Origin: an uncultured Planctomycetia bacterium | Lineage (GTDB): Bacteria > Omnitrophota > Gorgyraeia > 2-02-FULL-51-18 | Assembly (NCBI GenBank): GCA_964431835.1 | Contig: CAYSKO010000001.1 | Location: 42,131-106,130, forward strand | Length of the DNA: 64,000 bases | Reading direction: 5' to 3' | Shown: positions 5,652 through 36,449 of the stretch, in pieces | Numbering within the stretch: position 1 is the stretch's first letter | How the letters are laid out: every line of letters starts with the position of its first letter | Translations under genes and position numbers: made by a program | Notes under the pieces: model-generated | Database searches by the model: none | Told to the model about the DNA's origin: nothing | Seen by the model: the letters and a program-made list of their open reading frames with translations, nothing else

Positions 5652-5728
5652 CGCGGGGTAGAGCAGCCTGGTAGCTCGTCGGGCTCATAACCCGAAGGTC
5701 GTTGGTTCAAATCCAACCCCCGCTACCA
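5652..5728 (+). tRNA. tRNA-Met, initiator type (anticodon CAT)
   Basis: A 77-nt cloverleaf. The acceptor is CGCGGGG/CCCCGCT with an unpaired 1:72. The D-stem is GAGC/GCTC with A11:U24. The anticodon stem is tcGGG-CTCATAA-CCCga with three G:C pairs, a bacterial initiator hallmark. The T-arm is GTTGG-TTCAAAT-CCAAC, and the 3' end carries an encoded CCA. Confidence 0.88.
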
Positions 5729-5739
5729 ATGTAACGCAA

Positions 5740-5779
5740 GAAACCGCAGTGGTTAACGTCACTGCGGTTTCTTCTTTAG
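5740..5779 (+). terminator. Rho-independent terminator-like hairpin after the tRNA
   Basis: The stem is aaccgcagtg / cactgcggtt around the loop gttaacgt. It is followed by the T-rich run tcttcttt. Confidence 0.55.
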
Positions 5780-5940
5780 GTGTATGAAAATCGGTTCTGT
5801 CTAACAGCTGTCTAACAACTCAGAATTTGCTATACTCCTATTAGGGTATGGAAGCGAGTTTGATTCGGCCCGCCTCCACCATATTGAAAGTAAACCAGGG
5901 GATTGCATAGAAGAATGTTATTTGTACAGGGATTGCGAAC

Positions 5941-34927: not shown

Positions 34928-34934
34928 TATTTAA

Positions 34935-36398
34935 ATGCAGGCAAACCGGTCCGATGATCCCCTGGATATTGATTTCGAGGGCATAGCCCTTCCCGCCGTA
35001 CTTTTGGGCACGGATCTCACGGTGCGCCGGTTTTCCCCCCAAGCGGAGAAAACGCTCAATCTCGTTAGCTCCGATATCAACAAGCCCATCACTGAAATCA
35101 AACTCTCTATCCAAGCTCCCGATTTGGATAAGTTGGTTTTGGCTGTGATCACTACGGGACAGGTCTTTGAAAGGGAAATTCAAGATAAAGCGGGGCGATG
35201 GTACTCCATGCGTATCCGTCCTTTTAAGAAAGAGAACGTGATAAGCGGCACGGTCATCGTCTTGGTCGACATTGACGACATCAAGAGAATCTCCGATGAT
35301 TTTAAGGAAGAGCGGGATTACTCCACCGCGATCATTGATACGCTCCGCGAACCCTTTCTGATCTTAAAAAATGATTTAACGATCGAATCCGCCAACCGGT
35401 CTTTTTATCATACTTTCGAGGCCTCTCCGGGGGGCACGCTCGGAAATGCGATCGACCAATGGTGCGATAGCATCGAATTAAAGAGCGCACTGAATGCACT
35501 TTTGCTAGAGCGTAAATCCATTAGAAATTTCGAAGTCCATCACGATTTTCCACGAATCGGATGGAAAACGCTATGTATGAACGTGCGCACCGTCCGTCCG
35601 GACAAACAAACGGACTTCATTTTTATAGGTATCGAAGACATTACCGAAAGAAGAGAAATTGAGTTGGAGCACGAGAAGACGGTCGCCGCATTGGAGCAAT
35701 TCGCTTCGGCGGCGTCCCATGACCTGAAAGCGCCGCTCCGAAAGATAATCGCTTTCGGCGAGCGCTTGAGACACGAGCTTCAGGGCGCGGGAAAGGAAAA
35801 CCTCGATAAAATGCTTGCTTCCGCCATCCGAATGAGCGTGCTCATGGAAGAGCTACTGCAATTATCGCGTCTTTCAGCGCGGCTCGAGTTGCTTGAGCCG
35901 GTAGATTTGAATGCCGTAGTGAAGGAAGTTCTTACGGATTTGGAAACGCTTATCGAAGAATCAAAAGCCGTCATCAGCGTGGAATCGCTACCTACGGTGA
36001 ATGCAAACAGCCTTCAAATGTACCAGCTTTTTCAGAACGTCATCGCGAACGCGCTGAAGTATAGGAAAGCGGATATCCCTCCGCATATTCAAATCACGAA
36101 ACAAAAACTCCCCGATGGATTTTCTCAAATAATCATCAAAGACAATGGGATCGGTTTCGATCAAAAGCAGGCCTGTGAAATCTTTAAACCCTTCGTCCGC
36201 CTTCACGGACAGAGTGAATATACCGGCACCGGATTGGGGTTGGCTGTCTGCAAGAAGATCGTCGGGCGTTATGGGGGAGACATCCAAGCGAAAAGTTCCC
36301 CGGGGCAAGGCGCCACCTTTACCATCGTGTTCCCGTTTGTGACCGACCTTTTGGAGTCGGATCTCTCCGAATTACCCATTGCGCCCGAACCCCGATAA
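34935..36398 (+). CDS. PAS-PAS-HisKA-HATPase_c sensor histidine kinase. It resembles the C-terminal module of CheB-CheR-PAS kinases.
   Basis: Its N-terminal PAS ('LTVRRFSPQAEKTLNLVSSDINKPITEIK') is homologous to the PAS of the 46422 gene. The H-box is 'FASAASHDLKAPLRKIIAFGERL'. The kinase boxes are 'DNGIGFD' and 'GTGLGLAVCKKIV'. Confidence 0.8.
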   Translation: MQANRSDDPLDIDFEGIALPAVLLGTDLTVRRFSPQAEKTLNLVSSDINKPITEIKLSIQAPDLDKLVLAVITTGQVFEREIQDKAGRWYSMRIRPFKKENVISGTVIVLVDIDDIKRISDDFKEERDYSTAIIDTLREPFLILKNDLTIESANRSFYHTFEASPGGTLGNAIDQWCDSIELKSALNALLLERKSIRNFEVHHDFPRIGWKTLCMNVRTVRPDKQTDFIFIGIEDITERREIELEHEKTVAALEQFASAASHDLKAPLRKIIAFGERLRHELQGAGKENLDKMLASAIRMSVLMEELLQLSRLSARLELLEPVDLNAVVKEVLTDLETLIEESKAVISVESLPTVNANSLQMYQLFQNVIANALKYRKADIPPHIQITKQKLPDGFSQIIIKDNGIGFDQKQACEIFKPFVRLHGQSEYTGTGLGLAVCKKIVGRYGGDIQAKSSPGQGATFTIVFPFVTDLLESDLSELPIAPEPR

Positions 36399-36449
36399 GG
36401 GCCGCTCATAACCCGAAGGGCGTGGGTTCAAATCCAACCTCCGCTGCCA
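36399..36449 (+). repeat. Partial, diverged copy of the 3' half of the tRNA-Met (anticodon loop to CCA); a putative att-site remnant
   Basis: The sequence is 'gctcataacccgaagggcgtgggttcaaatccaacctccgctgcca'. It matches 5684-5728 at about 44 of 50 positions. It is in the same orientation as the intact tRNA. No 5' half, D-arm or intact anticodon stem is present upstream. Confidence 0.6.

Follow-up and report, generated by a model that had tools for sequence, protein, structure and literature searches.

Here we describe an intact initiator tRNA-Met gene and a diverged copy of its 3' part lying 30.7 kb downstream, both within a 64,000-nt stretch of DNA from an uncultured environmental bacterium that we refer to as the window. 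We put at about even the chance that the downstream copy (36404-36459, plus strand) is a displaced, decaying tRNA-fMet 3' part left by tRNA-targeted integration. The locus belongs, in degenerate form, to a familiar class; with its integration enzyme lost and its DNA rearranged, it amounts to an ordinary, unprovable island remnant, one that breaks no rule and raises no new question. Judging by the sample identifiers, the habitat of the host appears to be an Antarctic lake mat.

The tRNA-Met gene (CAT anticodon; 5652-5728, plus strand) is the only tRNA that ARAGORN finds in the window, and direct reading recovers the marks of an initiator: a C1/U72 mismatch, three G-C pairs closing the anticodon stem, and A11:U24. 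In an ungapped self-blast of the window, nt 32 to 79 of an extended tRNA query match 36404-36451 at 44 of 48 positions (E 6e-13), with identity beginning at tRNA nt 32, one base 5' of the anticodon loop. Gapped local alignment extends this to a direct repeat whose 57-nt left copy (5683-5739, plus strand) runs from the anticodon loop through CCA and about 10 nt further, pairing with 36404-36459 at 51 of 57 positions with one gap; similarity of the fragment to the tRNA locus thus continues some 10 nt beyond CCA. Both copies lie on the plus strand, separated by 5729-36403, and self-blast detects no further tRNA-derived fragments in the window. The pairing of an intact gene with a diverged, co-oriented 3' copy had been proposed in an earlier note and is borne out here; the note's placement of the fragment at 36399-36449, with 44 of 50 identities, was essentially right, although its first 5 nt do not match and the match runs further 3'. 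The fragment-specific 3' half reads GGGCGTGGG...CTCCGCTGCCA, and the right flank (...ATAAACGCAAAAGCCACCAGG...) leads into a PD40 gene and then ndvB.

The fragment behaves as a relic. Neither ARAGORN nor an Rfam scan (E<=10) over 36200-36600 finds a 5' half or a tRNA there, as the note had also held, and the idea of a hidden 5' half or tRNA-like fold is ruled out by ARAGORN, Rfam and RNA folding, the last of which retains only a residual T hairpin and a terminator (z = -2.2). The tRNA part carries four substitutions, each departing from the form common to the intact gene and to 81 of the 82 metagenomic copies. Through one of them a T-stem pair is lost (G51/A63), and another yields a discriminator G73. 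Because all four leave the consensus, with one breaking a T-stem pair, we regard the fragment as decaying, as suits a displaced copy without function. It is identical in L001, L002 and L210, and it shares its lineage-specific T-stem and its U72 with the resident tRNA, a variant that is widespread. Hairpins follow both copies at equal spacing, with no significant sequence in common on direct reading. The one behind the tRNA (5741-5778, plus strand; inverted self-match 5738-5773) is followed by a T-run and resembles a terminator, and the one right after the fragment (36460-36487, no strand assigned; terminator scan and RNA fold) is a strong stem of 11-12 bp. Its T-run lies only on the minus strand, so that it may also terminate transcription arriving from the ndvB side.

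A recombinase to accompany the repeat was sought by several routes. Pfam searches of annotated ORFs and of six-frame translations of all gaps returned no integrase, excisionase or remnant, and specifically no match to the tyrosine integrase family PF00589; tblastn of the window with three recombinases taken from metagenomic loci (L095, L129, L159) gave a best E of 0.34. The reported lack of an integrase thus stands, and the proposed tblastn check for degraded integrase or xis sequences yields no remnant. Phage, conjugation and other mobility genes are likewise absent, and the exact pattern of the tRNA 3' half has no matches among IMG/VR viral contigs.

Comparative evidence for an unoccupied site was also sought. 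Neither an empty site nor any close relative whose structure differs was found in the collections searched; all assemblies recovered with the right-junction gene are at least 99.9% identical to the window. The 1845-aa ORF of the left flank had no match, itself included, in two word-indexed protein searches, and none in JGI metagenomes. Genome contigs anchored on ndvB belong, among the matches listed, to many phyla, the best being 41-64% identical, and no conserved tRNA-fMet neighbour of ndvB was seen among them; L054 has one initiator tRNA convergent with ndvB, which is within chance expectation. When all window proteins were compared by tblastn with 80 tRNA-fMet loci and 80 ndvB loci, the sole shared context was a distant CheB-CheR/ndvB arrangement in L081.

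Composition across the interval is uneven. In keeping with integration, most interval genes have a GC3 of 0.45-0.72, against 0.72-0.85 in the flanks (the left-flank ORF, ndvB, MATE, ion channel and OYE genes), and on the left GC3 falls right at the tRNA. Its recovery on the right, however, comes only at the ndvB stop at 37.69 kb, 1.2 kb past the fragment, which speaks against a single island; KaiC and the CheB-like gene, at 0.77-0.78, resemble the flanks and so tell against integration. GC-normalised tetranucleotide profiles over 11.4-36.4 kb correlate with ndvB at 0.80-0.85, about equal to their mutual correlation. The low-GC DNA outside the repeat-defined interval is the PD40 beta-propeller gene (36661-37563, plus strand; GC3 0.50), a pseudogene recovered by six-frame Pfam search with one in-frame stop at 36988-36990.

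Most deviant of all are the two genes nearest the tRNA, a GHKL-ATPase protein (5941-7992, plus strand; Pfam HATPase_c_3, GC3 0.65) and a 280-aa protein of unknown function (8027-8869, plus strand; GC3 0.45), which together (5941-8869) have the lowest GC and the lowest tetranucleotide correlations of the interval. The earlier note saw in them a defense-like cassette, a label for which the matches are marginal: PADLOC finds no significant model of a known anti-phage defence system, its REase_II and PDC-M14B matches being marginal (E ~1e-4), and a restriction-enzyme-like NCBIfam BbrUII-family match is also marginal (45.8 bits, where the cut-off is 550). Exact look-ups of these genes gave no record.

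A Y1 transposase gene of RAYT-like type (Pfam Y1_Tnp; 11455-12063, plus strand, or 11373-12063 if its left end is counted) is flanked by inverted GGGACCAAGTCCC palindromes, which in the 64 kb are confined to this place and to 9028. The latter site belongs to a truncated duplicate of the left end plus first 10 codons (9022-9134, plus strand), 98% identical to 11373-11485, and the two left ends bracket KaiC (9250-10764, plus strand) and a CheB-like methylesterase-domain protein (10715-11359, plus strand), both identified by Pfam and NCBIfam. The transposase had been called a RAYT outright; RAYT-like is apt by Pfam, but the NCBIfam REP_Tyr_transpos score (NF047646, 56.9 bits) falls below the curated cut-off of 80 bits, so that membership by curated score is not reached. 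The window has no dispersed REP elements beyond the gene's own ends that would mark it as native, and look-up of the gene returned a single 1.2-kb contig.

The cargo block (12038-34927, all plus strand; GC3 0.46-0.72) has a Pfam content consistent with the redox and hypoxia gene set first read from it. By Pfam it comprises rhodanese, CoA-disulfide-reductase-like/rhodanese, cytochrome c'-like, desaturase and AOX-like proteins, two CBS proteins, two Usp proteins, two PAS kinases along with a regulator of LuxR type, MauE-like and PPi-PEPCK-like proteins (the latter by annotation of its PEPCK_PPi lobe), 2-hydroxyacid dehydrogenase, lactate permease, Na/Ca exchanger and P-type ATPase.

At the far end a PAS_10/PAS histidine kinase (34935-36398, plus strand; Pfam; orthologues P0002-P0005) runs almost into the fragment, which starts 5 nt past its stop codon and hence beyond the HATPase_c domain, ending at residue 468 of 487. 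The last 17 codons of the kinase (36345-36395) have no counterpart in a C-terminal alignment of four orthologues, which points to a novel junction at its 3' end, 52 nt upstream of the fragment. The contexts of the same four orthologues hold no tRNA, no fragment and no common neighbours, and are therefore uninformative about the site, though they did bring a split module to light. In L083-L087, by contrast with the window, where 23.5 kb separates them, KaiC, the CheB-like gene and the kinase are contiguous; the KaiC and CheB-like genes there share ~68% nucleotide identity with ours and stand divergent beside the kinase orthologue, and in the window the two parts of the split module differ in GC3. 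A single inversion of ~9.2-34.9 kb, which would restore the divergent adjacency, was considered as sole cause of the split; it is unsupported because the duplicated left ends of the RAYT-like gene form a direct repeat, not an inverted one, and because the module parts differ in GC3.

The same tRNA-fMet 3' half recurs in metagenomes, with 81 matches. Copies truncated at the 5' side make up 21 of the 77 classifiable copies of the exact 3' half, and about half of these begin at nt 29-35. Several adjoin recombinases: in L095 and L129 a tyrosine integrase gene lies 34-80 bp upstream of the fragment, where the window has its kinase; L101 and L136 provide additional tyrosine integrase matches; and in L159, L128, L148 and L094 large serine recombinases abut the tRNA or the fragment. 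Intact tRNA-fMet genes with a fragment 1.1-1.6 kb downstream occur in L113 and L159. The tyrosine (L095, L129, L101) and serine (L128, L148, L094, L159) loci resemble the window in the 3' half itself, in the T-stem GTTGG/CCAAC and U72, and in the start positions of their truncated copies; unlike the window, they retain the recombinase gene beside tRNA or fragment, and they have no cargo or flanking genes in common with it. Fragments of this sort do not all mark island ends, since some truncated copies stand behind housekeeping genes, namely MutS in L100 and enolase in L150.

Islander-type tDNA islands are marked at both ends by an intact tRNA gene and a displaced 3' fragment in direct orientation (PMC4383910; PMC100330). 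Among 3919 such islands, 3' fragments occur in 3760 and anticodon-centred sites in 2083, with lengths of 2-200 kb allowed; fragments are detected by BLASTN with word size 7, on the same replicon and outside another full tRNA (PMC4383910). The window agrees with all the geometric filters, having a full tRNA and an end fragment that reaches the 3' end, downstream on the same strand, as well as with those for length (30.7 kb) and coding (fragment outside Pfam domains), and the boundary of its scar is of the anticodon-centred type. The geometry, with the fragment's edge at the anticodon loop, therefore fits the earlier reading of integrases targeting tRNA 3' ends, a reading that as a whole is supported in part. 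Unlike Islander islands, the window has no integrase gene or remnant, no mobility genes, an imperfect repeat (4 substitutions in 48 nt) and, on the right, a compositional boundary offset by 1.2 kb; with no PF00589 integrase in the interval, it would not pass Islander's integrase filter. It also resembles degenerate or "anchored" islands and cryptic prophage remnants, which likewise keep an att-like scar after loss of the recombinase and show mosaic content, transposase-associated rearrangements and adaptive cargo (stress, redox). Such islands are usually recognised against strains that lack or mobilise the element, whereas the horizontal origin proposed for the window follows only from geometry and modest GC3 differences.

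How far the integration extends is a separate matter. The description of an old and remodelled island is apt, but a single 30.7-kb island is not established, and the idea of such a unit is weakened because the right compositional step is offset, KaiC and the CheB-like gene are flank-like, and the module is split. It is possible, if doubtful, that the scar is a true one and that 5.7-36.4 kb consists of several independently acquired pieces along with some native genes, the scar being either that of an older or smaller element, through tandem accretion and subsequent deletions, or a pre-existing one that came in with imported DNA. The uneven GC3 of the interval (0.45 in the 280-aa gene, 0.77-0.78 in KaiC and the CheB-like gene, 0.46-0.72 elsewhere) fits such an assembly, as do the left-end duplicates around those two genes, the unlike parts of a module that is contiguous in other genomes, and the low-GC DNA running past the fragment to 37.69 kb; the 1.1-1.6 kb tRNA-fragment pairs elsewhere show that intervals can shrink and be rebuilt. 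Against this, the window holds one fragment only, with no internal att-like copies to mark sub-islands, and the fragment carries the T-stem and U72 of the resident tRNA, though that variant is widespread.

Alternatively, the fragment could be what remains of a duplicated initiator tRNA gene that had a terminator of its own and whose 5' half was lost by ordinary deletion or rearrangement ending just behind the kinase gene, with no part for site-specific integration and the 30.7 kb being native. Similarity past CCA and a hairpin at equal spacing are what duplicated flanks would leave, but the two hairpins share no significant sequence, and att sites, too, commonly have identity blocks that extend a few nucleotides beyond the tRNA. 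The novel junction 52 nt upstream of the fragment, the missing integrase, the flank-like GC3 of KaiC and the CheB-like gene, tetranucleotide profiles not sharply unlike ndvB, and the fragments behind housekeeping genes in L100 and L150 all suit this explanation. It would, however, need a random truncation that happened to end where att boundaries most often lie, at the anticodon loop, and most interval genes have a GC3 below that of the flanks; we judge it unlikely. Far less credible still are a chance similarity and a selected functional element, which might for example give the kinase/ATPase transcript a processing signal or a tRNA-like 3' end. The position 5 nt after a stop codon with a strong hairpin behind it, matched by fragments 10-34 nt after a stop codon in L100 and L129, would agree with a function, but the fragment has no acceptor 5' strand, a broken T-stem pair, a fold limited to the residual T hairpin and no Rfam tRNA or tRNA-like match, and it is missing at the four kinase orthologues; chance is excluded by the E of 6e-13.

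Returning to tRNA-targeted integration, an integrative element would have recombined with the initiator tRNA gene at the anticodon loop, its own tRNA 3' half keeping the gene at 5652-5728 intact (the attL side, a regenerated target) and the gene's former 3' half being displaced to the far end as an attR-type scar, together with the DNA that once followed it. We infer that an integrase made the repeat and was later deleted, and that some share of the 30.7 kb arrived with it. The recombination module would then have been lost, possibly in a deletion by which the histidine-kinase gene also came to be fused within ~52 nt of the scar, while the DNA between the sites was reshuffled and probably added to, giving what would now be a fixed, immobile chromosomal mosaic with redox and low-oxygen stress genes. 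A bolder extension, which we think improbable, is that a domesticated, integrase-less tRNA-fMet island brought in a whole low-oxygen/redox-stress regulon, made up of the PAS kinases with the LuxR-type regulator, Usp and CBS proteins, AOX-like oxidase, PPi-PEPCK, and lactate dehydrogenase with its permease; the integrase deletion would have locked the island in place and fused the KaiC-partner kinase to the scar, and the ATPase-kinase transcript would now take its 3' end from the scar and its hairpin.

If integration is the true origin, the locus is another case of a tRNA-targeted element made a permanent part of the chromosome after integrase loss, its resident genes here serving redox and low-oxygen stress in an uncultured environmental bacterium. 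Two cautions follow for similar loci: island finders that depend on an integrase would miss this one, and the repeat by itself cannot tell what share of the DNA between its copies is foreign.

Beyond the window, this tRNA-fMet variant, which is widespread, is targeted repeatedly, and large serine recombinases, with ORFs that overlap the 3' end of the tRNA, are among those that use it. This recurrent targeting may be more generally useful than the window's own locus.

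We find that the only tRNA in the window, a tRNA-Met(CAT) at 5652-5728 on the plus strand (ARAGORN), has a partial 3' copy downstream in the same orientation, as the earlier note had proposed. Read directly from the sequence, the intact gene is an initiator, with a non-Watson-Crick C1/U72 pair at 1:72, an anticodon stem closed by three G-C pairs, and A11:U24; position 72 is U, versus A in E. coli. Its 3' half is identical in at least 81 environmental contigs (tRNA-fMet loci L090-L169), in some of which U1 replaces C1. Ungapped, the fragment at 36404-36451 agrees with the tRNA at 44 of 48 positions (E 6e-13), and a gapped alignment of 5683-5739 with 36404-36459 gives 51 of 57 with one gap, so that the similarity begins at the final base of the anticodon stem, covers CCA and extends ~10 nt past it. 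The fragment's 5' half is absent, with no tRNA found there by ARAGORN or by an Rfam scan at E<=10, and self-comparison of the window returns no further tRNA-derived pieces. The predicted fold of the region contains just two elements, what is left of the T hairpin (residual) and a strong hairpin downstream. Each of the four substitutions in its tRNA part deviates from the form common to the intact gene and 81 of 82 metagenomic copies, one disrupting a T-stem pair and another altering the discriminator base. Judged by its sequence, the fragment at 36404-36459 is a decaying relic.

The same tRNA half recurs in metagenomes, where a degenerate pattern spanning the tRNA and fragment forms matched at least 119 stretches; 77 copies could be classified, 56 as intact initiator tRNAs and 21 as lacking the 5' half. 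About half of the truncated copies start at tRNA nt 29-35, and the window's starts at nt 32. At two of these loci (L095, L129) a tyrosine integrase gene sits 34-80 bp upstream of the fragment, further tyrosine integrase matches adjoin the tRNA or fragment at two more (L101, L136), and large serine recombinases do so at four (L159, L128, L148, L094). The serine recombinase ORFs are convergent with tRNA-fMet (intact in L128, L148 and L094, a fragment in L159) and overlap the last ~30 nt of its sequence; according to the 2014 Islander paper, tyrosine recombinases were the only ones then known to target tDNAs (PMC4383910). In L113 and L159 the intact tRNA and fragment are just 1.1-1.6 kb apart, and elsewhere the fragment follows MutS (L100) or enolase (L150), so some truncated copies are not island-like. 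The metagenomic pattern matches the Islander principle and statistics, with 3' fragments in 3760 of 3919 islands and anticodon-centred sites in 2083 (PMC4383910).

Every gene from 5.9 to 36.4 kb lies on the plus strand. In order, these encode a GHKL-ATPase protein and a 280-aa protein of unknown function; KaiC (9250-10764) and a CheB-like domain protein (10715-11359); a RAYT-like Y1 transposase (11455-12063); a rhodanese, a CoA-disulfide-reductase-like/rhodanese protein and a cytochrome c'-like protein; two CBS proteins, a desaturase and an AOX-like protein; two PAS kinases and a LuxR-type regulator; two Usp proteins and a MauE-like protein; a PPi-PEPCK-like protein, a 2-hydroxyacid dehydrogenase and a lactate permease; a Na/Ca exchanger and a P-type ATPase; and a PAS_10 histidine kinase (34935-36398) that ends right against the fragment (stop codon 36396-36398). 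In the light of DosR/FixLJ-type regulons, the earlier label of a redox/hypoxia set is a reasonable inference. A defence-like cassette, also proposed, draws marginal support (PADLOC E ~1e-4, NCBIfam scores far under cut-off), and the supposed RAYT stands as a RAYT-like Y1 transposase that scores 56.9 bits against an NCBIfam cut-off of 80 and whose palindrome is not dispersed across the window. A 113-bp direct repeat (98% identity; 9022-9134 and 11373-11485), which takes in the RAYT-like gene's left-end palindrome (GGGACCAAGTCCC), its leader and its initial 10 codons, flanks KaiC and the CheB-like gene in the arrangement left end, cargo, left end, transposase, right end; by coordinate arithmetic, one Logan contig apparently terminates near it.

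The composition of the interval follows the proposed boundaries in part. GC3 is 0.72-0.85 in the left-flank ORF, ndvB, MATE, ion channel and OYE genes and 0.45-0.72 in most interval genes; the left step falls at the tRNA, and the right step lies at the ndvB stop (37.69 kb), leaving the low-GC PD40 pseudogene beyond the repeat. With GC3 of 0.77-0.78, KaiC and the CheB-like gene have the look of native genes, and GC-normalised tetranucleotide profiles separate the interval from ndvB weakly, with 5.7-9.2 kb the most deviant segment. Kinase orthologues are 66-68% identical, and in L083-L087 the kinase sits divergently beside KaiC and the CheB-like gene in a single compact module, ~68% identical to the window in nucleotides, with no tRNA or fragment downstream. 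In the window, KaiC/CheB-like (9250-11359) and the kinase are co-oriented, 23.5 kb apart and different in GC3 (0.77-0.78 against 0.58). At its C-terminus the kinase here has 17 extra codons, missing from all four orthologues, which marks a novel junction ~52 nt upstream of the scar. Given the RAYT-like left-end duplicate around KaiC/CheB-like, the split module and the heterogeneous GC3, the interval is a mosaic.

The most likely origin, to which we give about an even chance, is one in which an element would have integrated site-specifically at the anticodon loop of tRNA-fMet, its recombination module would then have been lost, and the displaced tRNA half would have decayed. The note's island interpretation is supported in part: the geometry and the integrase-adjacent truncated copies elsewhere speak for a tRNA-targeted island; the lack of an integrase and of a one-unit interval speaks against it. 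As the earlier note had stated, no integrase is present: no window ORF matches PF00589 or resolvase, six-frame translations of every non-coding gap contain none, and tblastn with three recombinases from analogous loci, a check for degraded remnants, shows no similarity (best E 0.34). The locus has all the geometric features of Islander's tDNA-targeted islands but not the integrase, and for this reason we class it as behaving like a remnant of such an island rather than as one of the active kind.

It is less likely that all 30.7 kb between the two sites form a single element. The fragment may be a genuine scar and yet not mark the limits of the 5.7-36.4 kb interval, a reading that has the mosaic on its side and the lack of any second tRNA-derived piece in the window against it, and that we consider somewhat doubtful. 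A truncated duplicate tRNA gene, for which the copies behind MutS and enolase offer a parallel and against which stands the start of the match at the anticodon loop, is unlikely; a functional or chance element, with the strong hairpin on one side and the alignment score and substitutions on the other, is very improbable. Under the preferred reading of integration and decay, the locus is a degenerate example of a well-known kind and matters little unless empty- or active-site relatives turn up. No related genome with an empty site, the comparison that the earlier note had suggested, came up in the collections searched. All other assemblies of this organism are at least 99.9% identical, each with the fragment; the genome collection's ndvB relatives, among the matches listed, are taxonomically scattered and at most 64% identical, and the left-flank protein matched nothing in either protein search or in JGI metagenomes.

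The ORF at 2-5539 (1845 aa or longer) has a Pro/Ala-rich linker and is predicted to contain several membrane segments; it has no Pfam match, and the word-indexed protein database and JGI metagenomes returned no homologue, not even itself. In a Gemmatimonadales MAG (L054), an initiator tRNA-Met (21127-21200) is convergent with ndvB and 2.4 kb downstream of it, a position resembling that of the window's fragment; as one case in 60 distant loci, it is probably chance. The PD40 beta-propeller gene (36661-37563) has a single in-frame stop (36988-36990), and since this is identical in three independent assemblies, the gene is probably a true pseudogene. At 46422-50223, a CheB-CheR fusion ORF overlaps the next PAS_10 kinase ORF by 155 nt in a different frame, and the PAS_10 domain is cut off at the start of the second ORF; the pair resembles a CheB-CheR-PAS-kinase fusion gene that has been frameshifted. 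The window's divergent CheB-CheR/ndvB arrangement recurs in L081, a distant gammaproteobacterial MAG. Finally, a low-GC defence island (56259-62930) holds type I restriction-modification HsdM and HsdS, with a PDC-S05 candidate gene embedded among them, plus a SIR2-HerA pair; each of these has a strong PADLOC match.
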